62,863 bases of DNA. It comes from Minisyncoccota bacterium (GTDB lineage Bacteria > Patescibacteriota > Minisyncoccia > Phycocordibacterales > UBA9973). How positions within the stretch are numbered: the stretch's first letter is position 1; the number at the start of each line of letters is the position of its first letter. A program made the translations under genes and the position numbers. The stretch spans positions 1 through 62,863 of the forward strand of contig CALNZI010000008.1 in assembly GCA_942491275.1 (NCBI GenBank), in the 5' to 3' direction. Under the pieces are notes generated by a model. The model was not told the DNA's origin. It saw only the letters and a program-made list of their open reading frames with translations, and did not search any database. This document shows positions 14,090-46,103 of this stretch, one piece after another.

Positions 14090-14660
14090 ATTTTACTCTT
14101 TCAACATATTCTCCTGTTTCAGTATTTACTCGAATTTTATCTCCAACATTTAAAAAGAAGGGAGCTGAGATTTTTATTCCATTCTCGAGGGTTACAACTT
14201 TTCCACCACCACTAGCAGTATTGCCCTTTATGGATGGGGGAGCTTCTTTAATAGTAAATTCCATCTTAATTGGGAGTTTTATATTAATTATTTTATCTTC
14301 ATCATCCCAAACAAGGGCTTCTACTATTTCATCAGATTTGAGAAATTTTGTTGTTTCTTTCCCAATAACATCTTCTGTTAATTGGAATCTATCAGATGGG
14401 TCTTTGGCATCACAGAACCAATATTCTCCCTTATTGGTGTACAGAAATTTTACATCTTTTTTACTGACATTAGCTTCTGCCACTTTGTCTGAAGCATGAA
14501 AAGTAGCGTTCCAAGTTCGCCCAGAGAGTAGACTTTTCAATTTTACTTGATTTTGAGGTTTCCTTTGTTGGGTTCGAGCCACATGATTGTCTAGAACTTC
14601 ACTAGGCTCATTTTGATAAATTATTATTTTTCCTTTTCTAATGTCGCTATATTCTAACAT
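14088..14660 (-). CDS. efp: Elongation factor P
   Basis: IRKGKII, PPSIKGNTASGGGK (EF-P loop) and GDKIRVNTETGEYVERV; start reassigned to ATG 14660. Confidence 0.96.
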   Translation of the reverse strand: MLEYSDIRKGKIIIYQNEPSEVLDNHVARTQQRKPQNQVKLKSLLSGRTWNATFHASDKVAEANVSKKDVKFLYTNKGEYWFCDAKDPSDRFQLTEDVIGKETTKFLKSDEIVEALVWDDEDKIINIKLPIKMEFTIKEAPPSIKGNTASGGGKVVTLENGIKISAPFFLNVGDKIRVNTETGEYVERVK

Positions 14661-14664
14661 GATT

Positions 14665-15708
14665 TTATTCAGGGTTATTTGTTTGTAATTCTCCAAATCG
14701 GTTTTTTATTTCCTTTAGAAAACCGTCGGCAACTTTTTTATTTTCTTTCAACCAGAGACGAGTAGCATCGTAACCTCTTCCCATAGAAACTTTGTTTCCA
14801 TCTTTATCTTTATATGAATAGGAAGCCCCTGATTTTTCCAGAATTTCAAGTTTCTCTCCTAGAGCGATGATTTCTCCTTCTCGAGAGATACCTTTTCCAT
14901 AGAGAATATCAAATTCAGTTTGTTTGAACGGGCTAGCTACTTTATTCTTTACAACTTTAACTCTAGTTCGGCTTCCGACAATTTCATCACCTTTTTTAAT
15001 TTGAGCAATTCGACGGATATCAAGCCTGACTGATGTGTAAAATTTAAGAGCTTTTCCTCCGGGAGTTGTTTCTGGATTACCAAACATAACACCTATCTGC
15101 ATTCTAATTTGGTTAATAAAGATAACAACAGTCTTTGAATTAGCAACGATGGCAGTCAATTTTCGAAGAGCCTGTGACATTAAACGAGCTTGTTTTCCCA
15201 TATGGGATTGACCCATATCTCCTTCAATTTCATCTCTAGGAGTTAGAGCTGCCACTGAATCAACTACTACTACATCGATTTTTCCAGAGCGAATTAAGCT
15301 TTCGGTAATTTCAAGAGCTTGTTCTCCATTGTCCGGCTGAGAGATTAATAGATCTTTGGTCTTTACTCCTAACTTTCCAGCATATACCGGATCCATTGCA
15401 TGCTCTGCATCAATGAAAGCACATATGCCACCCTTCTTTTGAGCTTCAGCAATGATGTGTAGGGCGAGAGTAGTCTTACCGGAGGATTCTGGTCCAAATA
15501 TCTCAAGAATGCGCCCTCGAGGGACACCACCTATTCCTAGAGCCATATCAAGCCCTAGAGATCCCGTTGGAATAACATCCACGTTTACTTTAGGAGTATC
15601 TCCCATTTTCATAATTGAACCTTCGCCGAATTTTGTTTGGATAGCTTTTATTGTATCTTCAATTTCTCCACCCACTGTTTTTAAGTCTTTCTTTGCTTTT
15701 TTTTGCAT
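14665..15708 (-). CDS. recA: Recombinase RecA
   Basis: [19 protein letters not shown] and [15 protein letters not shown]. Confidence 0.99.
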
Positions 15709-15723
15709 AATATAAAAATTATA

Positions 15724-15840
15724 AAAATAAATTAAAACAACTCTTCTCTTCGGGTATAAAAATTTTCTGCTGAAAATTTTCTCAGTATTCGCTCCGTCGA
15801 GCTCATAAGCCCCTCAGATAAGATTATTTTAATTTATTTT
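15724..15840 (+). repeat. Dispersed structured repeat, copy B
   Basis: Same core as copy A; flanking 17-bp IR AAAATAAATTAAAACAA / TTATTTTAATTTATTTT (one mismatch). Confidence 0.92.
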
Positions 15841-15860
15841 GAATATTTAATAAAAATAAG

Positions 15861-16256
15861 TTATTTTATAATTTCTCTTCCAAGTGCAATCGCCTCTGCA
15901 CTTTCATTTGATATGATAGTAAATTTCTTTTCTGCTGATTTTCCAAATTTGTCGCTGGCATGTAATGAAATAATAGAAAGTCCTGGTAATAGTCCAACTG
16001 TTTCTGAAAAATTACCTTGCTTGTCAATAAATATTTCACGTCCATTTAAACTTAGATGTATAGAATTTTTGGCATTGCCAAATACTTGGACAAGGGAAGA
16101 GGATTTATTCTGAGTTAGGCTTGCTTCTATTCGTACTCCTTTCATAACAAAATCCATTTTTATATAACCAAAAACACCGATAATTAAAATTAATAAAACA
16201 CAAGAAGAGAATCCTAGCCACCATTTTATTCCTTTGTTTTTAATATTCCTTATCAT
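15861..16256 (-). CDS. Hypothetical membrane-anchored protein, probable Ig-like fold
   Basis: One TM helix then a beta-rich domain (LSLNGREIFIDKQGNFSETVGLLPG). Confidence 0.7.
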   Translation of the reverse strand: MIRNIKNKGIKWWLGFSSCVLLILIIGVFGYIKMDFVMKGVRIEASLTQNKSSSLVQVFGNAKNSIHLSLNGREIFIDKQGNFSETVGLLPGLSIISLHASDKFGKSAEKKFTIISNESAEAIALGREIIK

Positions 16257-16290
16257 CTCATTTTTCCCTTACTACTTACTACTAATATAA

Positions 16291-18462
16291 TTATAACTCT
16301 TCCTCCTCAGTATTGTCCATCGGTTTTTCAAGGACATCTCGAGGTTTAGACCCATTAGCTTCACTGACGATTCCTCTTTCTTCCAGCATATCCATCAATT
16401 TAGCAGCACGGGCATAACCAATTCCCAATTTGCGTTGAAGGAAAGAGGTTGAAGCTTTCCCTGTTTCAATAACTGTCATGCGAGCATCTTCGTATAGGTC
16501 GTCGTCATTATTGTCTACATCGTCGTGGAATAGGCTACTTCCTTTTTCTATTGAACCCGTTAGTTCAATTGTTTCTGGAATTTCATCTATGTAAACTTTC
16601 TTAAGATGAGCAGTGACTTTCTTAACTTCGTCTTCTGAAATGAAGGCACTTTGGAGACGTTCTGGCTGGGACATTTCTCCACTGGCAAATAACATATCAC
16701 CGGCACCCAGAAGTTTTTCAGCTCCACCTTGATCCAAAATTGTTCGAGAGTCTATTTGAGAAGAGACCTGAAGGGCAATACGAGCTGGTACATTGGCTTT
16801 AATTAGTCCAGTAATAACATTAACACTTGGACGTTGAGTTGAAAGGATTAGATGAATACCAACGGCTCTGGACATTTGAGCAAGTCGGATAATAGAACTT
16901 TCTAGCTCTCTTGGATAGGTCTGCATGATGTCAGCTAATTCATCAATAACGATAACGATATAGGGCATTCTATCTGCTTGTTCTTCTCTGTCTTCATTAT
17001 TTTTACCATTCTTATAAATATTATTATGATATGACTCAATATCTCTAACTGATTCAGCTTCCAGTACGTCATATCTTCGATCCATCTCTTTAGCAGCCCA
17101 TTTTAGAGCTAGAATCGTTTTCTTTGCGTCAGTAATAACAGGAGTTAGAAGATGGGGAATTTTGTTATATAAAGGAAGCTCAACACGCTTTGGGTCAACT
17201 AGAATCATCTTCATATCATCTGGTCCATTTCTATACAATAGGGAAGTAATCATGGAGTGGATGGTTACTGATTTACCAGAACCCGTTGCTCCAGCTACCA
17301 GAAGATGAGGCATTTTAGCTAGATTGCCGAAGATAGCTTTGCCGGATAATCCTCTTCCCAAAGCCACCGTAAGTGGATTTGGTGCGTTCTGAAATTTGCT
17401 ATCAGAAAGCAATGTAGCTAAACCAACCGTTGATTTTACTTTGTTTGGGATTTCAATTCCCACTAGACTTTTTCCAGGAATTGGAGCCTCGATACGAATT
17501 GGATGAGCAGCTAATGCTAGAGCTAAATCATTTTGTAATCCAACAATTCTAGAAAGCTTAACTCCTTGAGCTGGCTTCAAAGCGTAACGAGTAATGGTTG
17601 GTCCGATTGTTACTTCATCCATTTCAACAGAAATTCCAAAGTTTAGAAGTGTCCTCTGGATGATATTCATATTTCCCTTTAGGTCTCCAACATTTGGTTT
17701 ACCCTTATCTTTTTCCAGTAGTGAAAGTGGGGGAGCGGCATAGTCTGTGTGAACTTTCTTTTTTCGTGAGAAAATGGAAGTTTTTTCTTCCACATCTCCT
17801 TCTTCGTAATCATCAGGAGACACCCCTTTTATTTCTTCATCTTCGCCTTCCTCTTCTTCTTCGTATTCTTCATCTTCCTCTTCACTTACTTCTTCTTCAT
17901 ATTCAACCTCATCTTTATTTCTTGAGAAGGGGAGGGAGAAGTCTCTCTTAAGAAAAGCTAAAACTTTTTGCCAGAAGGCTCCAAGATTTGGGCTTTGGTC
18001 GAATAAAATAATTAAAGAAATTATTAGAATTGTTCCTAGTAAAAGAATACTAGCGTAAACTCCAAAAAGTTTTATAAAAGGTAGGGCTACTAAACTTCCT
18101 AGGTATCCTCCCCAAACTATATTGATTGAGTGACCTGCTCCATTGACTGCAATGTCGGCTATTCCAAGTGCCGAGAGTAAAGAAATAAAACCAGTGATGC
18201 TGTGTCTACGAGCAACCTTGACTTCTCCACGACGAACAAAGGCGACTCCGGCAGCTCCAAGAACAATGGGTAGTAAATAATATCCAAAACCAAATAGTCC
18301 GCTTAGAATTGAAAAAATAAAATCACCAGCAACTCCGGCGGATTTAAATATTGTAAGTAATATAAAAAGACCTAGGACAAGAAATCCGAAGCCCCAGATA
18401 CTTTTTTTTGTTTCGTCTTTTAATGGTGTTCTTGTTGAGTTGTTCTTTTTTCTTTTTGCCAT
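16291..18462 (-). CDS. ftsK: DNA translocase FtsK/SpoIIIE
   Basis: N-terminal TM region, PHLLVAGATGSGKS, DPKRVEL, IDELAD, STQRPSV and gamma domain LQRKLGIGYARAA. Confidence 0.97.
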   Translation of the reverse strand: MAKRKKNNSTRTPLKDETKKSIWGFGFLVLGLFILLTIFKSAGVAGDFIFSILSGLFGFGYYLLPIVLGAAGVAFVRRGEVKVARRHSITGFISLLSALGIADIAVNGAGHSINIVWGGYLGSLVALPFIKLFGVYASILLLGTILIISLIILFDQSPNLGAFWQKVLAFLKRDFSLPFSRNKDEVEYEEEVSEEEDEEYEEEEEGEDEEIKGVSPDDYEEGDVEEKTSIFSRKKKVHTDYAAPPLSLLEKDKGKPNVGDLKGNMNIIQRTLLNFGISVEMDEVTIGPTITRYALKPAQGVKLSRIVGLQNDLALALAAHPIRIEAPIPGKSLVGIEIPNKVKSTVGLATLLSDSKFQNAPNPLTVALGRGLSGKAIFGNLAKMPHLLVAGATGSGKSVTIHSMITSLLYRNGPDDMKMILVDPKRVELPLYNKIPHLLTPVITDAKKTILALKWAAKEMDRRYDVLEAESVRDIESYHNNIYKNGKNNEDREEQADRMPYIVIVIDELADIMQTYPRELESSIIRLAQMSRAVGIHLILSTQRPSVNVITGLIKANVPARIALQVSSQIDSRTILDQGGAEKLLGAGDMLFASGEMSQPERLQSAFISEDEVKKVTAHLKKVYIDEIPETIELTGSIEKGSSLFHDDVDNNDDDLYEDARMTVIETGKASTSFLQRKLGIGYARAAKLMDMLEERGIVSEANGSKPRDVLEKPMDNTEEEEL

Positions 18463-19828: not shown

Positions 19829-20760
19829 TGACCTCTTTCATTTGTATTTTCCACCCCATTTTCTATCTATTTTTAGGGTTCAAAAATCACCATTTTTTGA
19901 CCCAAATTAAACCCTTAGTTATCCACACTTTTCTATATATCTATTGATTATTTATAGGCCACGGTATATAATACGTATACATATTATTATTGCTAGTGTA
20001 ATTGCACTAAATATGATAGTATATGTTGTCTGATATTATATTCATTTTTAATGGATATAAGTTGGATTGATCATTGAAAATTTAATAGCTAAAAATTATT
20101 AATACCAAATAATTTTTAGAAATATAATTTTAGTTCTTATTTTTTAAGAAGGTTTTATTTATAATTTTAACACCTTGTTTTAAAACTAGTTCTAAATTAT
20201 TTATTACTTTTCGATGGTTAGACACCGTAAAATTTTGAAGTAAAAATTTGAAATTATTTCTTCCGCTTAAAATTTTGTTTCCAATATTTGATACTCGTCC
20301 GTGATTTTTTTTGATAGAGAAAATTATTAGGAGAGAAAATATAAAAATAATTTTTTAAAAAGAAAAATAAAATTGAATTTATATTTTAATTTTTTATTTG
20401 GTATCGGCCCTGTCGACAAGGCAGATATGCTATTTGTTTTTCATTAAAATATTTTAATTTTTTTAGAAAATTTTAATGATTACATTTAGTAATGTTTATC
20501 AGTTTTTTTTCTAACTAATTTTTTCAGAATTTGGATTGTTGCTTGGCATATTTCTTTTGATAGAGAAGTAAGTAAGTCAGGAATAAAAAAAATAATGAAA
20601 TTATTATTTGGAATTTGTGTTCGTTCATATTAATCAATTAATTAATGTGAACAAAAATAATATACACACGCACATTAGTTTTTTTTGTGGATGCATCATT
20701 ATTAATAAGCATTCCATGAATTAGTCGAAATTAATTTAAAAGTGTATAGAATTATTAAAT

Positions 20761-22719
20761 ATGTTAAAAAAATTCTTAATCGGAACATTCGCAGTTGCTG
20801 TTTTAGCTTTTGCTATGGTAGCATCCGCTGCTTATGATTTCGGAACTACAACTTTGAGAGTAGGTAGTACAGGCGAAGCTGTTATGAATGTTCAAACAGT
20901 TGTCGGTGCTTCCGTAGATGGAAAATTTGGTCCTATGACCAAAGCTAAAGTTATGGCTTGGCAGTCAAACAACGGCTTAGTTGCCGATGGTGCTGTTGGT
21001 CCTATGACTAAAGCTGCAATGAACGGTACATCAGTTGTTACATCAACTTGTCCAGCAGGTCAATTTGACCCTATGACAGGTCTTGCATGTGGAGAAGTTT
21101 CAACTCTTCCAGCAGGATGTATGGCAGGTTACGCGTTTAGTGCAACAACAGGCGTAGCTTGTGTTGCTGGAACAGTTCCTGCAGATACAACTTTCACTGG
21201 AGATGGTGAAGGTAAATTAACTTCTTTTGAAGAAAATGCCCCAGAAGTAACAGAAGCTTCTGAGAATGGAGTTGATGAAGAAGTTTTAAATGTTTCTTTT
21301 GACGCTGATAATGCTGATCAGAAAATTACTCGTATTGATGTAGACTTCCAAGCAGAAGATTCTACACAATCTGATAAGCCTTGGGATTATTTCACAGAAG
21401 TATCTCTTGTCTTTAATGGAAGCGTGGTAGCAACAGCAGATGCTGCTAGCTCAAGTGACTGGGATAGAACAGATGAAACAACTTCTTATGATACTTGGTC
21501 AATTAGATTTTCTAATCTTGATTTAGTTATCAAAGATAATGCTACTGCTAATTTGGCAGTTGCTGTTTCTTCTTTATCTAATGTTGATGGAAATGATGAA
21601 GGTCAATCTTGGGAAGTTGCAATTCCAACAAATGGAATTCGTGCTATTTCTCCAAATGGTCTTTCAGAAACATATCCTACAACAGAACTTAACGAAGACT
21701 TTACTGTAGCTGGTTCAGATGCAGGAACTCTTGTTTGGTCAACAAATGCAGATAATCCAGATGCAAAAGCTATCTCTCTTGATGCTACTGTTGATACTAA
21801 TGGTGTAGTTTTAGCTCTATATGATGTTGAAGCTGACAATCAAGATATATTAGTTGAAGATGTGGTAATTGAAGTTACTGGAACAACTACTGGAACAGCT
21901 AACCAAGTTAGCGACTTCGTTCAAACATTTCATCTTTATGCAGATGGGGACTTAGTTTCAAGTGAATCTGCTTCTACTGCAACAGATATTGATGATGTAG
22001 AAATTACATTTAGTAATGTTAACTTCACAGTTGAAGATGGAAAGACTGTTACTTTCAAAGTTACAGCTGACTTCCAACCTTTAGATGGGACAATTGTAAA
22101 GGCCGCAGATACCTTTAAGGTAAACATTGATGCTTCTGATACTGTTGCTGAACAAGCTTCAGGTGGAAACACAGGAGATTCAATTACTGTAACTGGTGAT
22201 ATTACCGGGCAAGTACATGCTTTGTTCGTTGATGCTCCAGAAATTGCTTTAGTTAGTGCAGTTCTAACAAAGACCCTCGCTTGTGATGGTGTTTGTGCTG
22301 GAGGCGAAGCAGAAAGAGCAGAAGCAGTTATAACTTATACAGTTAAAGCTGTTGGTGCTGATGTTTATCTTCCAGATGAATTAGTGGAAGATGCAGATGA
22401 ATCAGATACTACATACGGAACAGGATCAACATACTTCTTAAAAGAAGGAGCTGGTACTGAACCTACAGCAACTGCTTTGTTGACAACAACAAACGCTTCT
22501 ACTGATACAAACGGTTGGGTTGTTCGTAAGGGTGAAACAAAAACATTCAAAGCATATGTAACAATTACAGCTGCTGCTGATGGTTACCAATCAGTTGGTA
22601 TGTCATCTATTGAATGGAATGCAACTTCTGTTGCTGGAGGTTCTGCAAAGGACTACACTTACAGTATGCAACCAGACTGGACAACAAACAGTATTTATCT
22701 AGAATTTACAGCAGCATAA
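20761..22719 (+). CDS. Secreted peptidoglycan-binding, acidic beta-rich surface (S-layer-like) protein
   Basis: Signal peptide; PG-binding domain (LRVGSTGEAV...VDGKFGPMTKAKVMAWQ..GLVADGAVGP); Cys-rich linker; long T/D/A/V-rich beta region; strongly biased codon use. Confidence 0.8.
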   Translation: MLKKFLIGTFAVAVLAFAMVASAAYDFGTTTLRVGSTGEAVMNVQTVVGASVDGKFGPMTKAKVMAWQSNNGLVADGAVGPMTKAAMNGTSVVTSTCPAGQFDPMTGLACGEVSTLPAGCMAGYAFSATTGVACVAGTVPADTTFTGDGEGKLTSFEENAPEVTEASENGVDEEVLNVSFDADNADQKITRIDVDFQAEDSTQSDKPWDYFTEVSLVFNGSVVATADAASSSDWDRTDETTSYDTWSIRFSNLDLVIKDNATANLAVAVSSLSNVDGNDEGQSWEVAIPTNGIRAISPNGLSETYPTTELNEDFTVAGSDAGTLVWSTNADNPDAKAISLDATVDTNGVVLALYDVEADNQDILVEDVVIEVTGTTTGTANQVSDFVQTFHLYADGDLVSSESASTATDIDDVEITFSNVNFTVEDGKTVTFKVTADFQPLDGTIVKAADTFKVNIDASDTVAEQASGGNTGDSITVTGDITGQVHALFVDAPEIALVSAVLTKTLACDGVCAGGEAERAEAVITYTVKAVGADVYLPDELVEDADESDTTYGTGSTYFLKEGAGTEPTATALLTTTNASTDTNGWVVRKGETKTFKAYVTITAAADGYQSVGMSSIEWNATSVAGGSAKDYTYSMQPDWTTNSIYLEFTAA

Positions 22720-22981: not shown

Positions 22982-23006
22982 TCTGCCAAGGACGGTCCTT
23001 GGCAGA
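22982..23006 (+). repeat. REP-like palindrome 1 (5' of RAYT)
   Basis: TCTGCCAAGGAC-G-GTCCTTGGCAGA. Confidence 0.9.
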
Positions 23007-23705: not shown

Positions 23706-23736
23706 AAAGTTGCCAAGGACCGTCCTTGGCAACTTT
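23706..23736 (-). repeat. REP-like palindrome 2 (3' of RAYT, inverted relative to REP 1)
   Basis: AAAGTTGCCAAGGAC-C-GTCCTTGGCAACTTT. Confidence 0.9.
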
Positions 23737-28173: not shown

Positions 28174-28198
28174 TCTGCCAAGGACCGTCCTTGGCAGA
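28174..28198. repeat. REP-like palindrome 3 (8 nt after the large surface gene)
   Basis: TCTGCCAAGGAC-C-GTCCTTGGCAGA followed by TTTGAG, as for REP 1. Confidence 0.9.
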
Positions 28199-37236: not shown

Positions 37237-37241
37237 TTTAA

Positions 37242-37288
37242 AAGAATTAAGAATTAAGAATTAAGAATTAAGAATTAAGAATTAAGAA
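37242..37288 (+). repeat. Heptamer tandem repeat (AAGAATT)6 plus a partial unit, abutting the folD ATG
   Basis: Six perfect units plus AAGAA, then ATG at 37289. Confidence 0.97.
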
Positions 37289-38125
37289 ATGAAAACACAA
37301 ATTATTGACGGAAGAAAAATTAAAGAAGAGATCTTAAAGAAAGTAAAAGAAGAAGTTTTAACTTTACCTTTTTCTCCTGTTTTTTGTGATATTTTAGTAG
37401 GGGATGATAAGGTTTCTGCTTCCTATGTTCAAATTAAGGCAAAAAATGCTGATTCTGTAGGGATTAAATTCCGAACGGCAGAATTTCCAGAATCCATAAC
37501 TACGGAAGAACTAATTGAAGAAATAGAAAATTTAAATAGAGTCCCTCATATTTGTGGAGTAATTATTCAATTACCATTACCGGATCATATCGACAGAAAA
37601 AAAGTTTTAGATGCCATTGATCCACGGATTGACGTTGATTGTTTAGGGGCAGAAACAAATAAGGAATTTTATAATAATAAAGGAGAGCTTGGATATCCAA
37701 CAGCTTTAGCTTGTTTGAAAATTATTGATTCACTTAACTTAAATTTGTCTGATAAAAAAATTGTTGTTTTAGGGCAAGGATTTCTCGTTGGTCTTCCAGT
37801 GTCTCATTTGCTCCGTTCTCGAGGATTACAGATAGAAACTATTAGTAGCAATACAGAGGGAGCAAAAGATTTAATTAAAGAAGCAGATATTATAATCTCA
37901 GGAATAGGGAAAGGAAAATTTATTACTGGAGAAATGATTAAAAAAGATGTTATTATAATTGATGCGGGGACTTCTGAGGAGAATGGTTCTGTGATAGGGG
38001 ATGTGGATTTTGAATCAGTAAATGGAATTGCATCTCAGATAACACCATCACCGGGAGGAGTTGGGCCCGTTACTGTGGCAGTACTATTGGAGAATGTTTT
38101 AAAAGTAGCTAAAAATAAAAAATAA
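37289..38125 (+). CDS. folD: Methylenetetrahydrofolate dehydrogenase/cyclohydrolase
   Basis: GVIIQLPLP, DVDCL, IDAG, GDVDF and TPSPGGVGPVT. Confidence 0.95.
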   Translation: MKTQIIDGRKIKEEILKKVKEEVLTLPFSPVFCDILVGDDKVSASYVQIKAKNADSVGIKFRTAEFPESITTEELIEEIENLNRVPHICGVIIQLPLPDHIDRKKVLDAIDPRIDVDCLGAETNKEFYNNKGELGYPTALACLKIIDSLNLNLSDKKIVVLGQGFLVGLPVSHLLRSRGLQIETISSNTEGAKDLIKEADIIISGIGKGKFITGEMIKKDVIIIDAGTSEENGSVIGDVDFESVNGIASQITPSPGGVGPVTVAVLLENVLKVAKNKK

Positions 38126-41687: not shown

Positions 41688-42572
41688 ATGACTTTATATA
41701 AACAGCAATCGAGAAATGTTCAAAAGACTTGGTTATTAATGACTGTGTTTTTGGTGGTGGTTATTGGGATTGGTTATTTTTTTAGTGTTTATTATCAAAA
41801 TCCTTCAATACTTATTTTCTTCATAATTTTCTCTTTAATTATGAATGTGATTTCCTATTGGTATTCTGATAAAATTGTTCTTTCCATGGCAGGAGCACAT
41901 CGAGCTGACAGAAAGCAACACTTTGATCTGTATACTACAGTTGAAAATTTAGCTATCACTGCGGGACTACCCATGCCTAGAGTTTACATTATTAATGATC
42001 CTTCTCCCAATGCTTTTGCTACCGGACGAGACAAGGATCATGCTGTTGTAGCTGTCACAACGGGCCTCTTAGCTATTCTAGAGAAGAATGAGTTAGAAGG
42101 AGTCATTGCTCATGAACTGAGCCACATAGGCAATAAAGACATGCTATTATCCACAGTTATAGTGGTGTTAGTTGGATTTGTGGCCATCCTAGCTGACTTC
42201 TTTATGAGAAGTCTAATCTTTGGTGGAGGACGAGATAGAGACGGAAAAGGAAACTTTCTAATGATTGTTGGAATTGTTCTTTCCATTCTGGCTCCTATTT
42301 TTGTTATGATTATTCAATTGGCAATTTCTCGAAAGAGGGAATTTCTAGCCGACGCCTCGGGAGCTCTATTGACTCGTTATCCAGAAGGACTGGCCAGTGC
42401 TTTGGAAAAGATAAGTAAATTCAGTCGTCCAATGAAGAAACAATCTAAGGCAATTTCACATTTATATATTTCTGATCCGAAAGGGAAGTCTCTTTCTATG
42501 AAAGTTTCCGGAATGTTTGCCACCCATCCGTCAACCGAAGAGAGGGTAAAAAGATTGAGAGGAAATAGTTGA
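41688..42572 (+). CDS. htpX: Zinc metalloprotease HtpX (M48)
   Basis: PNAFATG, HELSH, SRKREFLADA and THP; follows lemA. Confidence 0.93.
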   Translation: MTLYKQQSRNVQKTWLLMTVFLVVVIGIGYFFSVYYQNPSILIFFIIFSLIMNVISYWYSDKIVLSMAGAHRADRKQHFDLYTTVENLAITAGLPMPRVYIINDPSPNAFATGRDKDHAVVAVTTGLLAILEKNELEGVIAHELSHIGNKDMLLSTVIVVLVGFVAILADFFMRSLIFGGGRDRDGKGNFLMIVGIVLSILAPIFVMIIQLAISRKREFLADASGALLTRYPEGLASALEKISKFSRPMKKQSKAISHLYISDPKGKSLSMKVSGMFATHPSTEERVKRLRGNS

Positions 42573-42717
42573 TTTAGACCACACTTTTTGGGTTGTTTAT
42601 TTTTATTATTTCTAGTACCATACATCTCGAATATTATTTGTTCCTGTGAATCTGTTAGCTTTATTATTAATAGATAGATTCGCTACACCCTTTTCGGTGA
42701 TGATTGTTGGGTGTTAA

Positions 42718-42807
42718 GGAGAGGTCGCATAGTGGTCTAGTGCGCTCGCTTGGAAAGCGAGTGAGGGGTCAAACCCTCCGCGAGTTCGAATCTCGCTCTC
42801 TCCGCCA
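42718..42807 (+). tRNA. tRNA-Ser (anticodon GGA)
   Basis: Acceptor GGAGAGG/TCTCTCC, anticodon stem CTCGC-TTGGAAA-GCGAG, long variable arm, GTTCGAATC, encoded CCA. Confidence 0.97.
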
Positions 42808-42832
42808 CTAAGTTTTATGGTAATATTTATAT

Positions 42833-44557
42833 ATGAAACCTGAAACTAGAAATTGCCAGAATTGTAAAAAAGACTTCGTTATTGAAGTTGATGATTTTTC
42901 TTTTTATGAGAAAATCAAGGTTCCTCCTCCTACTTTTTGTCCGGGATGTCGTATGCAAAGGAGATTAAACTTTAGAAATGAAAGGTCTTTATATAAGAAA
43001 GAATGCAATCATTGCAAAAAAATGGTTATTTCTGTTTATCCAAAAGAAAGCTCGGTAATAGTTTTTTGCCAGGATTGCTGGTGGGAAGATTTCTGGGACC
43101 CTTTTTCTTTTGGAAGTGAGTATGATTTTTCAAAACCATTTTTTGAACAATTTGAAAATTTATATGCAAAAGTTCCACAGATAAGTTTATTTAATACTAA
43201 ACCTTTAAATTCAGATTATTGTAATTTTGCAGCAGAAAATAAAAACTCCTATCTCTTCTTTGGAGGAAAGGGGAATGACGGAGTTTTATATTCCCACAAC
43301 TCATCTTTTTCCAAGGATTCTTTAGATGTCTCTATATCAGGCAAATTAGAACTTTGTTATGAAGATATTCAATGTGATAATTCAAATCGTCTCTTTTTTA
43401 GTAAAGATTGTGATAATTGTGTAGATTCTTATTTTCTTTATGATTGCAAAAATTGCATAAATTGTTTTGGTTGTACTAATTTAAGGAATAAACAATATTG
43501 TTTATTTAATAAACAGCTTGGGAGAGAAGAATATTTAAAGAGTATTGAAAGTTTAAACCTAGGTAGTTTTTCTTCTGTGGCGGAGGTCAAAAAAGAGTTT
43601 CAGAATTTATACAATAAGGCTGTTCATAGATTTTCTCATTTCATAAATACAGAAAATTGTACGGGAGATAATATTAGAAATTCTAAAAATTGTAAGAATT
43701 GTTTTTATATGCTGGGTTCCGATTCTGAAAATAATAAATATTCTGCTCATTCAGTTGTCGGAATGAAAGATAGTTATGATAATTATGGATCAGCAAAAGC
43801 AGAATTAGTTTATGAAACAATAGCAATTGGGTTTGAGTCTAACGAAAATTATGATTATAAATTTAGTTTTTTTATTAGAAGTAGTAGTGATATTTCTTAT
43901 TCTATAAATTGTACTGGATCCATGCACCTCTTCGCCTGCATCGGCCTCCGAAACAAAAGTTATTGTATTCTTAACAAACAATACACCAAAGAACAATACG
44001 AAGAATTGGTCCCCAAGATAATACAACACATGAACGACATGCCATACATAGATAGTAAGGGAAGAGTATATAAATACGGAGAGTTCTTTCCATCAGAACT
44101 ATCACCATTTGCCTACAATGAAACAATAGCTCAAGAATATTTCCCATTAACAAAGGAACAAGCTCTAGAACAAGGATATAGATGGAAAGATAAGGAAGAA
44201 CGTAATTACACCATTGATATCAAGAATCAAGACATTCCCGATGATATAAAAGACGTAAACACTGACATACTAGGTAAAGTTATAGAATGTGCACATAAAG
44301 ACTGTAATCATCAATGCACTGAAGCTTTCAAGATAATACCCGAAGAACTACAGTTCTACCAAAGAATGAACTTACCCCTACCACGTCTATGTCCCAACTG
44401 TAGACATTATGAAAGACTAAACCAACGTAATCCAATGAAACTATGGCACCGATCCTGTATGAAAGAAGGATGTACCAACACCTTTCAAACATCATACTCC
44501 CCAGACAGACCAGAGATAGTATATTGTGAAGAGTGTTATCAAAAGGAGGTGTATTAA
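42833..44557 (+). CDS. Cys-rich protein with zinc-ribbon CxxC pairs and C/S/N-rich beta-helix-like repeats
   Basis: CQNC, CPGC, CNHC, CQDC at the N-terminus; CDNCVDSYFLYDCKNCINCFGC repeats; CPNC and CEEC at the C-terminus. Confidence 0.8.
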   Translation: MKPETRNCQNCKKDFVIEVDDFSFYEKIKVPPPTFCPGCRMQRRLNFRNERSLYKKECNHCKKMVISVYPKESSVIVFCQDCWWEDFWDPFSFGSEYDFSKPFFEQFENLYAKVPQISLFNTKPLNSDYCNFAAENKNSYLFFGGKGNDGVLYSHNSSFSKDSLDVSISGKLELCYEDIQCDNSNRLFFSKDCDNCVDSYFLYDCKNCINCFGCTNLRNKQYCLFNKQLGREEYLKSIESLNLGSFSSVAEVKKEFQNLYNKAVHRFSHFINTENCTGDNIRNSKNCKNCFYMLGSDSENNKYSAHSVVGMKDSYDNYGSAKAELVYETIAIGFESNENYDYKFSFFIRSSSDISYSINCTGSMHLFACIGLRNKSYCILNKQYTKEQYEELVPKIIQHMNDMPYIDSKGRVYKYGEFFPSELSPFAYNETIAQEYFPLTKEQALEQGYRWKDKEERNYTIDIKNQDIPDDIKDVNTDILGKVIECAHKDCNHQCTEAFKIIPEELQFYQRMNLPLPRLCPNCRHYERLNQRNPMKLWHRSCMKEGCTNTFQTSYSPDRPEIVYCEECYQKEVY

Positions 44558-44559
44558 AT

Positions 44560-44584
44560 TCTGCCAAGGACGGTCCTTGGTAAG
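44560..44584 (+). repeat. REP-like palindrome 4 (2 nt after the stop of the Cys-rich gene)
   Basis: TCTGCCAAGGAC-G-GTCCTTGGTAAG, then AAACGTCCGAA (44585-44595), also found at 22950-22960 near REP 1. Confidence 0.88.
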
Positions 44585-44621
44585 AAACGTCCGAATCAAG
44601 ATGAGGTGTTATAATTAAAAA

Positions 44622-45218
44622 ATGAATAAAAACACAGAATACCTAGAAGTTTTTAAGAGTGCTGATTTTAAAAGATGGCTCTCAAAAAATCATAAAGAAA
44701 AAAGTAAAATTGGTTTAATCATTCACAAAAAACATACGGGCAAAAAATCACCTAGTCATAACGAACTTTTACTGGAAGCAATTTGCTATGGTTGGGTTGA
44801 TACAGTAATAAAGAAATTAGATGAAGATAGGTTTATCCGCTTTTTTTCTAAAAGAAGTTTGAAGGGTAAGTGGAGTTATAATACATTGAGTTACGGAGAA
44901 AAAGTAATAAAAGAAAAAAGGATGAAGTCTTCAGGTTTAATTGCCTATAAGGAAGGAAAGAAGAGACTTCCTCTTGATCATGGAATTCCTAAAAATCCTG
45001 AATTACCAGAAGAAATGAAAGTTGAGCTAGATAAAAAGAAAAACAAAAAAGCTAAGGAAGCCTGGGATAAACTAGCTCCTTCCTCTAGAAAAACATATTT
45101 AAGATGGGTTATAAGAGGGAAGCAAGCTGAAACTCGAAAAAAGAGAATTTATTCGATAATTAATGGGTTAACGAAGGATGGAGTTAAAATGGGTATTTCT
45201 CTTAAGATTAATATTTAA
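44622..45218 (+). CDS. YdeI/OmpD-associated (bacteriocin-protection) family protein
   Basis: F..WL..NH, EAICYGWVD, F..R..K.KWS, W.KLAPS.RK.Y..W. Confidence 0.85.
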   Translation: MNKNTEYLEVFKSADFKRWLSKNHKEKSKIGLIIHKKHTGKKSPSHNELLLEAICYGWVDTVIKKLDEDRFIRFFSKRSLKGKWSYNTLSYGEKVIKEKRMKSSGLIAYKEGKKRLPLDHGIPKNPELPEEMKVELDKKKNKKAKEAWDKLAPSSRKTYLRWVIRGKQAETRKKRIYSIINGLTKDGVKMGISLKINI

Positions 45219-45335
45219 TATGTTCCATTATTTTTTCTTTTGTTGAAAAATGTTATAATTTAACTATGCTTGAATCTTTTCAGTCAGGAGATTTGAGTTA
45301 ATATTTTTAGAAATTACTAATAATAAAAAAAATTT

Positions 45336-46073
45336 ATGAAAAAAAAGATTACAATTATTACGGCACTAATGTTTTCTCTACTTTTAGTTTTTATGGCATT
45401 TAATGTTCAAGCTAAAGAGGGAGGGGAAGAAAAAGGAGGAATTAATGTAAAGGATAGCGTTCAGATTCAAACTACTAACCAAGGAGAAGAATCTGAAATT
45501 CAAGTTCAAAACAGAGAAGAAAATCGAGTTGAAACAAATGCTCAAGTTAAGACCCAGGGGGAAGATGATGATTCTGATGAAAATGAATATGGTAACAGAA
45601 AAAATGACGACAGTGATGATGATTTAGACGATGAAGATAACGGTAAAAATATGGGTGAAGAAAGAAGAAGTATGGTTGCCAATGCTGTTCAAGAAATGCT
45701 TCAAGTTGCTGATAGAACCGGAGGAATTGGTGAACAAGTTAGAGTTATTGCTCAAAATCAAGTAATGCACCAAGAGGCATTAGAAGAATCACTAGAAGAG
45801 GCTAGGGATCGTAGCGGTTTTGCTAAATTTTTTATTGGTCCAAAATACAATAAAATAAATGAGTCTAAAAAATTACTTGAACAAAACAAAGAAAGAGTAA
45901 CAGAATTGAATCAAATTCACGCTCAAATTTTAAATGAGGCTGATGCTCAAAATTTAATGGAACAGATTTCTCTTTTGGAACAAGCTAATCTACAAATTGA
46001 GGCAACAATCAATAGTTCAGAAAAAACCTTTAGTTTATTAGGTTGGTTTTCTAAAATGTTTGTAAAGAAATAA
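45336..46073 (+). CDS. Hypothetical secreted protein, acidic N-half and helical C-half
   Basis: Signal peptide ending VQA; D/E-rich tract; coiled-coil-like C-terminus. Confidence 0.75.
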   Translation: MKKKITIITALMFSLLLVFMAFNVQAKEGGEEKGGINVKDSVQIQTTNQGEESEIQVQNREENRVETNAQVKTQGEDDDSDENEYGNRKNDDSDDDLDDEDNGKNMGEERRSMVANAVQEMLQVADRTGGIGEQVRVIAQNQVMHQEALEESLEEARDRSGFAKFFIGPKYNKINESKKLLEQNKERVTELNQIHAQILNEADAQNLMEQISLLEQANLQIEATINSSEKTFSLLGWFSKMFVKK

Positions 46074-46103
46074 AAAACTCATAGTCAGGGGTATAATTAA
46101 TTA

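Follow-up and report, generated by a model that had tools for sequence, protein, structure and literature searches.

Paralogous genes of bacteria can undergo concerted evolution by interlocus gene conversion, of which tufA/tufB and the rRNA operons are examples, and cassette-type antigenic variation, as in pilE/pilS and vlsE, likewise combines gene conversion with multi-copy families that have conserved ends and a variable middle. Vertebrate mitochondrial genes, which have an A+C-rich sense strand, illustrate the strand asymmetry connected with replication and transcription. Here we analyzed a cysteine-rich open reading frame (ORF; 574 aa, 33 Cys, intact) at 42833..44557 on the + strand of contig CALNZI010000008.1 of a Minisyncoccota bacterium (62,863 nucleotides; the entire contig is referred to as the window), in which codon composition switches abruptly within the frame. 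The gene is one of 21 full-length paralogues of a Patescibacteria zinc-finger/beta-solenoid family, and we call the parts before and after the switch the head and the tail, respectively. It resembles the concerted evolution of other bacterial paralogues in that a tract is nearly identical between two copies, synonymous sites included, while the flanks are diverged, and in that, in other genomes, tails sort by genome while heads follow orthology. It differs in that only the conserved C-terminal third would be converted, that there are ~20 copies per 0.7-Mb genome, and that the tail has its own strand-asymmetric composition. At four-fold degenerate sites the tail resembles the mitochondrial case, with high A and C, low T and G near zero on the sense strand, but here the asymmetry occupies 540 nt inside one majority-strand gene and has a sharp edge that is conserved across species. 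In recombining bacterial DNA, GC-biased gene conversion is associated with a higher G+C content at synonymous sites (Lassalle et al. 2015, PMC4450053), and the present gene departs from this pattern, because C alone rises while G falls at four-fold sites and stays flat at two-fold purine codons.

A preliminary description of this DNA had placed a sharp switch in codon composition at ~43920 with the reading frame continuing unbroken, and both statements proved correct. From head to tail, the third-position composition changes from 0.52 to 0.23 for T, from 0.09 to 0.24 for C and from 0.29 to 0.42 for A, with G at 0.10 in both parts. When amino-acid content is controlled, the share of C at two-fold pyrimidine codons, C/(C+T), rises from 22/152 in the head to 32/67 in the tail (Fisher p=4e-7), and the T/C/A/G counts at four-fold sites go from 49/11/30/9 to 11/17/32/1 (chi-square p=2e-5), while the G share at two-fold purine codons of this gene is unchanged (0.23 vs 0.22). 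The maximum-likelihood change-point lies at codons 361-363 (43913-43921) with a likelihood-ratio test (LRT) statistic of 45.2, compared with at most 22.5 among the 108 family genes that do not switch. In a genome-wide scan that covered every ORF of at least 100 aa in 3304 windows of 180 codons, an excess of C over G at four-fold sites of at least 0.26 was reached by only two windows, the tail of this gene and that of a paralogue at C1:6699. The change-point codons and the left edge of identity with that paralogue (43925) together define the junction at 43913..43927 (+), which the predicted structure places in the final turns of the solenoid rather than in a linker. Directly before the ATG of codon 364, at 43916-43924 and thus at the junction, this copy alone carries a GGATCC; as the C1 copy and the orthologues lack it and yet switch there too, we regard it as coincidental.

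The odd composition had been thought to extend to the stop codon, which is not the case; it occupies codons 361-540 (43913..44452, +) and fades to the baseline by about codon 540, near 44450. The bias jumps at codon 361, peaks at codons 381-400, where the two-fold C share is 0.83 and four-fold C is 0.59, and is at baseline in codons 541-574. C is gained in all eight four-fold families, in every kind of two-fold pyrimidine codon, in Ile and, through a shift from TTR to CTN, in Leu. The loss of G is limited to four-fold sites, where G falls from 0.10 to 0.03, and the G share at two-fold purine codons is flat (0.20-0.21). Amino acids with G-/T-rich codons (Gly, Val, Phe) are slightly rarer in the tail, and Gln, His and Pro are commoner. 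The bias is therefore at the nucleotide level, with C and also A replacing T and G on the sense strand at degenerate sites of codons 361-540. It is regional and not linked to conserved residues, as the C share is 0.22 in invariant head columns and 0.32-0.45 in variable tail columns.

The preliminary description had also proposed that the 3' ~640 bp came from a paralogue, with modules being shuffled within a multi-copy Cys-rich family, and had recommended a search of the genome for a near-identical paralogue tail. Such a tail was found at C1:7776..8434, within the paralogue C1:6699-8408, and this part of the proposal stands. The shared tract occupies 43925..44583 (+), from codon 365 onwards, and its 659 nt align without gaps at 96.2% identity (25 mismatches); its codon differences are 15 synonymous and 5 non-synonymous. 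Twenty-four of the 25 mismatches lie within 44281..44518, and the alignment to the C1 copy has an identical core of 353 bases at 43928..44280 (+), which would represent the most recent conversion. Upstream of 43925 the heads of the pair are ~40% identical as protein and ~55% identical by base, and at the DNA level they match only in the first 164 nt (84.8%) and in one further match of 25 nt. At the other end the tract stops just past a hairpin of the repetitive extragenic palindromic (REP) type, in agreement with the earlier idea that the shuffling may use REP ends. No tail-only or head-only pieces of the family were found in the genome. With near-identity that includes synonymous sites and with diverged DNA flanking it, the shared tail appears to be the result of gene conversion between paralogues, or of an equivalent replacement of the tail.

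Other genomes contain the same arrangement. In G021, G020, RAAC4 and STB_124, two or three C-rich tails each are 76-100% and mostly 83-100% identical to one another (DNA, codons 381-540; lower in some 20-codon windows), compared with 40-60% for their heads, and on its left side the similarity begins at codons 361-381. In trees of the genes from other genomes, heads cluster by orthology and tails by genome, and this pattern holds in G021. Approximately unbiased (AU) tests rejected a clade of the L019 and L021 heads (p=1e-5) and a clade of the L017 and L019 tails (p=0.024), and did not reject a clade of the L021 and L022 tails (p=0.30).

To place the switch in the family, we compared 134 family genes, namely 21 from this genome, 38 from five congeners and 75 from genomes of other species, after merging three duplicates; kin among these genes are not independent. 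The C share at two-fold pyrimidine codons rises by at least 0.2 in 26 of the 134, and these 26 belong to Paceibacterota, Parcubacteria RAAC4, Nomurabacteria and Giovannonibacteria. In query residues, their change-points lie at 362-367 in 13 genes, at 372-378 in seven, at 345-360 in four and elsewhere in two. The closest DNA to the tail outside this genome is 76-78% identical and comes from six other species of the genus, where the head-to-tail switch is also present. By comparison, neighboring housekeeping DNA is 66-77% identical between species, and whole-gene orthologues are 72-75% identical overall with heads at 66-73%. At four-fold sites, the identity of tails between species is 0.31-0.57, compared with 0.22-0.37 expected from composition. 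Since the switch recurs in species whose synonymous sites are near random, the combination of head and tail would be old, and its composition would have been upheld independently in many lineages. From these sequence comparisons, the codon switch appears to be an old, maintained property of a slowly evolving lineage of C-rich tails, and not the product of the conversion seen in this genome. One orthologue, in G022 (L023/L084, G022:C2:24657-26369), is interrupted near residue 382 by a frameshift and an in-frame TAG, which points to a broken copy or to an error of sequencing.

Overall, the locus is probably best described as an intact family gene with an old, maintained C-rich tail, whose copies are kept alike by conversion and whose composition may be under selection on the nucleic acid. 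As for what holds the bias, our tentative proposal, to which we give somewhat less than an even chance, is selection on the nucleic acid, most plausibly for an mRNA that is poor in G and U and weakly structured. An A/C-rich sense strand pairs poorly and would yield a weakly structured stretch of mRNA over codons 361-540, and conversion between copies would be a mere consequence of the resulting high identity. The predicted folding energy per 540 nt of this gene is -76.1 kcal/mol for the tail vs -98.8 kcal/mol for the head, and per 120 nt it is -14.6 vs -16.6 and -17.6 kcal/mol (14 genes per group). As the synonymous conservation at the level of single sites is weak, such selection would act on composition and not on a motif. 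It is also possible, but on the doubtful side, that the stretch is a nucleic-acid signal not described before, a 540-nt coding segment that is kept depleted of G and T across many Patescibacteria, against the mutation bias and the codon preferences of their genomes, and that is linked to the portion exchanged between paralogues; this may be an unstructured mRNA platform, or may reflect polar recombination or single-strand exposure.

Several points weigh against this account. The conservation of synonymous sites is weak, with an observed/expected ratio of 1.1-1.2, and the loss of structure is modest, the sense strand having z=+1.15 against its own shuffles. The flat G at two-fold purine codons is predicted neither by selection against G nor by G-to-A pressure, and it fits poorly with both the selection and the recombination readings. 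A 38-nt motif of the C version occurs in only two of 301 genomes sampled from the order, a sample in which the congeners were not included. To our knowledge, such an RNA stretch has no known function. With respect to conversion, a sister relationship of the heads of this genome's own pair was not rejected by the AU test (p=0.34), and the incongruence of heads is seen in relatives and not in this pair; moreover, the groups submitted to the AU tests were picked after the trees had been seen. Finally, the relatives were sampled by their similarity to the query, 40 of the 67 congener hits were fetched, and two broken genes were dropped.

An alternative that we consider unlikely is that the composition is a by-product of recombination, in which conversion always enters from the head side and exposes or repairs the template strand of the tail with a bias, leaving an excess of C and A on the sense strand. 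The odd composition and the conversion tracts have a common left edge, and the bias is strongest beside this edge and gone by codon 540, as this explanation would have it. Within genomes, identity of at least 0.77 occurs only in C-rich tails (8/8; Spearman 0.51 over 59 non-independent genes), and the four-fold changes, T and G down and C and A up, go the way that deamination of the opposite strand would drive them. However, the most C-rich tail of all (L017 of G004) lacks any partner with an identity above 0.69, its genome being 100% complete, and G at two-fold purine codons does not fall. The fall of four-fold G excludes plain GC-biased conversion in particular. The other repeated segments of this genome have no C excess either, although these controls are few and of a different kind. 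Polarized synonymous changes in five within-genome tail pairs were 27 C>T vs 16 T>C and 23 A>G vs 4 G>A, but we rejected these counts as a test of mutation against selection, since polarizing by the clade majority labels most differences as majority-to-minority.

Strong antisense transcription of codons 361-540, which would invert the strand asymmetry normally linked to transcription, is an improbable cause. The skew does point the way it would in a gene transcribed from the opposite strand, and the effect is regional with a sharp edge; against this, promoter-like sites are not above chance (7 found vs 9.3 expected), terminators number zero, and the folding of the antisense RNA does not stand out from shuffled sequences (z=-0.41). 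There is no Rfam match for such a transcript, the search of both strands of 42500-45000 returning a tRNA alone, and we found no conserved antisense ORF and no conserved nucleotide motif. Nor was an antisense partner for codons 365-401 found elsewhere in the genome.

Translational selection, by which the tail would have been recoded for speed or accuracy, is largely refuted, and we give it a small probability. The two-fold C share of the tail (0.48) and its four-fold G (0.02) do match those of the EF-Tu and L7/L12 genes of this genome (0.50 and 0.01-0.03), but at four-fold sites these genes have the reverse preference, T over C. Four-fold T of EF-Tu is 0.42-0.57 in five of five genomes, and C is 0.04-0.10 in four of them and 0.21 in G008, compared with a T of 0.18 and a C of 0.28 in the tail. 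The supply of tRNAs does not explain the bias either; Ala, Pro and Thr gain C, yet only UNN and no GNN tRNAs for them are among the 39 found (12% of the genome is missing). In addition, the invariant residues of the head are not recoded. As a separate observation on the tRNAs, three of only 39 in the whole genome are tRNA-Cys(GCA) genes, and the Cys-rich family makes up ~5% of the DNA.

The preliminary description had traced the tail to a paralogue in the opposite strand-bias context or to another genome, and a recent import of this kind, not yet ameliorated, is very improbable. Minority-strand genes do lean the same way, with a two-fold C share of 0.28 and four-fold T/C/A/G of 0.39/0.16/0.37/0.08, and a paralogue with the same tail does exist. 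However, the bias of the tail is about twice as strong as that of minority-strand genes, and both the gene and the C1:6699 paralogue are on the majority strand, which dismisses replication-strand bias as well. The same switch is present at the same codon in other species, between which four-fold sites are near random and synonymous divergence near saturation. Viral contigs yielded no relative of the tail, and a phage source was rejected for this reason. The least probable explanation, an assembly chimera at a repeat, has almost nothing left to commend it, because the switch is found in both copies and in orthologues from independent assemblies and lies upstream of the 353-bp identical core within an intact reading frame, even if that core could mislead an assembler and the contigs of this bin have overlapping, GC-rich ends.

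Three further candidates were examined and rejected. A Rho utilization (rut) site is not expected, as the Rho domain PF07497 was found in none of six genomes of the genus (completeness 88-100%). An overlapping gene is not supported, as the median longest open run is 37-63 codons and is not above that of ordinary tails in four of five alternative frames; in frame +2 it is 36.5 vs 25 codons in ordinary tails, and none is conserved in the five frames. The variable region of a diversity-generating retroelement does not fit the 25 differences, which are of mixed kinds and mostly C/T; a reverse transcriptase was not searched for. Replication strand, tRNA supply, a bias of the EF-Tu type, GC-biased conversion, Rho, overlapping ORFs and Rfam families all fail to account for the bias.

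Antigenic or ligand variation, which had been suggested as a possible purpose of shuffling within the family, is not supported by our results. The family is multi-copy with conserved ends and a variable middle, like the pilE/pilS and vlsE cassettes, but unlike those cassettes all copies (21 of 21) are full-length ORFs, and the part that would be converted is the conserved one, not the variable one. The N-terminus is a zinc ribbon, at which no signal peptide is visible, no predictor having been run.

The 21 family copies are held in a genome of 0.69 Mb, with arrays on contigs C1, C4, C6 and C9, which agrees with a family of many, partly tandem paralogues. A database search returned 7,991 relatives among the 8,000 entries scored; the best 120 are all named 'hypothetical protein' and all come from Patescibacteria lineages, and one of these 120 has a precomputed Pfam domain. 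The protein of 574 aa belongs to a type of ~550-600 aa in which homologous CxxC zinc-ribbon modules flank a solenoid core on either side. Its invariant cysteines are at 8, 11, 36 and 39 and at 486, 542, 547 and 565, and the N-terminal and C-terminal modules align with each other. The AlphaFold model (predicted local distance difference test, pLDDT, 82; predicted template modeling score, pTM, 0.86) consists of a putative N-terminal zinc ribbon, a predicted beta-solenoid core, and a helical part followed by a predicted C-terminal zinc ribbon. In a wide structure search, core residues 121-397 aligned weakly to left-handed beta-helices (best Z 6.0), and Foldseek against the PDB gave no match at E<=0.001; a sequence profile search of the PDB gave a single LIM-type match at E=0.015.

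The protein has no Pfam or NCBIfam match. With their CxxC...CxxC modules, the treble-clef zinc fingers zf_Tbcl (PF13451) and zf_Tbcl_2 (PF23477) resemble the modules at both ends of this protein, but the protein itself reaches neither model at E<=1; among 43 relatives, zf_Tbcl was weakly matched by nine and zf_Tbcl_2 by eight, with best E values of 1.7e-4 and 2.7e-5, respectively. Within the gene, a conserved 5' block at 42827..42990 (+) covers the start region and the N-terminal zinc ribbon and is 84.8% identical by blastn to C1:6693-6856; residues 1-40 are 75-92% identical to many paralogues. The variable head at 42991..43912 (+), corresponding to the predicted beta-solenoid core, is 20-55% identical to paralogues in amino acids and has the T-ending codons usual for the genome (two-fold pyrimidine C share 0.14). 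A literature search found no paper on the family or on an intragenic codon switch of this kind, which does not prove that none exists. A protein atlas contains unnamed clusters of ~200 aa that resemble the tail with scores of 0.90-0.92, a lead to tail-only proteins or gene fragments.

At the end of the gene, the REP-like palindrome CCAAGGACGGTCCTTGG is located just past the stop codon at 44564..44580 (no strand assigned), and the shared tract reaches 3 nt further. The match to the repeat begins on the final base of the stop codon (44557) and is the fourth of four sites in the window. The 17-nt palindrome, perfect or near-perfect, is found in the window at 22986-23002, 23713-23729, 28178-28194 and 44564-44580, where 0.03 would be expected by chance, and nine times in the genome; it or a variant hairpin directly follows the stop codon in seven of the 21 family genes. 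The last 14 codons (561-574) have a four-fold G of 0.40 clade-wide. In this gene they include a G-rich, perfect Shine-Dalgarno-like string, AAGGAGGTG (codons K571-E572-V573; AAG GAG GTG), at 44543..44551 (+), where the composition is at baseline; the string is ~70 nt ahead of the next start.

Upstream, a tRNA-Ser with anticodon GGA lies at 42718..42807 (+; ARAGORN; Rfam tRNA, 54.4 bits), and with the ATG at 42833 its 3' end is 25 nt before the gene, exactly as had been described. The gene is further neighbored by LemA and an M48/HtpX peptidase upstream and by a YdeI/OmdA-family gene downstream. From HtpX/tRNA-Ser to the next conserved genes (42573-46100 of the window) the distance is 3.5 kb here, ~1.4 kb in G022, 5.6 kb in G020 and 8.6 kb in G004, and since this interval differs in length among congeners, the Cys-rich gene occupies a variable spot beside the tRNA gene. 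Elsewhere in the window, at 37237-37305, there is a repeat of ~60 nt with dozens of 80-100% matches in congeners, which were searched with the flanking region.

The genome comprises 685,839 bp in 13 contigs (88% complete, 34% GC), the window being contig C8. Positions 1-781 of the window match C1:42887-43668, in the end region of contig C1, at 96.8%, and further contig ends overlap at 98-100% (C3/C13, C7/C10, C10/C13, C2/C9), suggesting repeats or strain variants at assembly breaks. Stretches of very GC-rich codons occur outside the window on C7 (~110-131 kb), C6 (1.2-3.3 and 151-155 kb), C1 (43.7-44.1 kb) and C2 (0.7-1.4 kb), mostly at contig ends, with a two-fold pyrimidine C share of 0.5-0.7 and a four-fold G+C of ~0.7; these probably reflect chimeric joining, contamination of the bin or islands of foreign DNA. 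Contig C5 has an inverted repeat of 2.5 kb (14573-17076 / 20173-22692) at 86% identity that overlaps a 1056-aa ORF.

Gene conversion between paralogues is ordinary; what is unusual in this family is an intragenic step in codon composition that is fixed in position across species whose synonymous sites are scrambled and that none of the usual forces accounts for. What the present comparison adds is that the tail composition appears, from the sequences compared, to be lineage-wide, positionally fixed and maintained. In practical terms, a break in composition inside a gene of this zinc-finger/beta-solenoid family should not be taken as a sign of foreign DNA or of a chimera. If polar recombination turned out to be the cause, the tails would document strand-biased repair in bacteria, of which natural records are rare, and if selection is the cause, the tail mRNA or DNA would have a function in a family that fills ~5% of tiny genomes.

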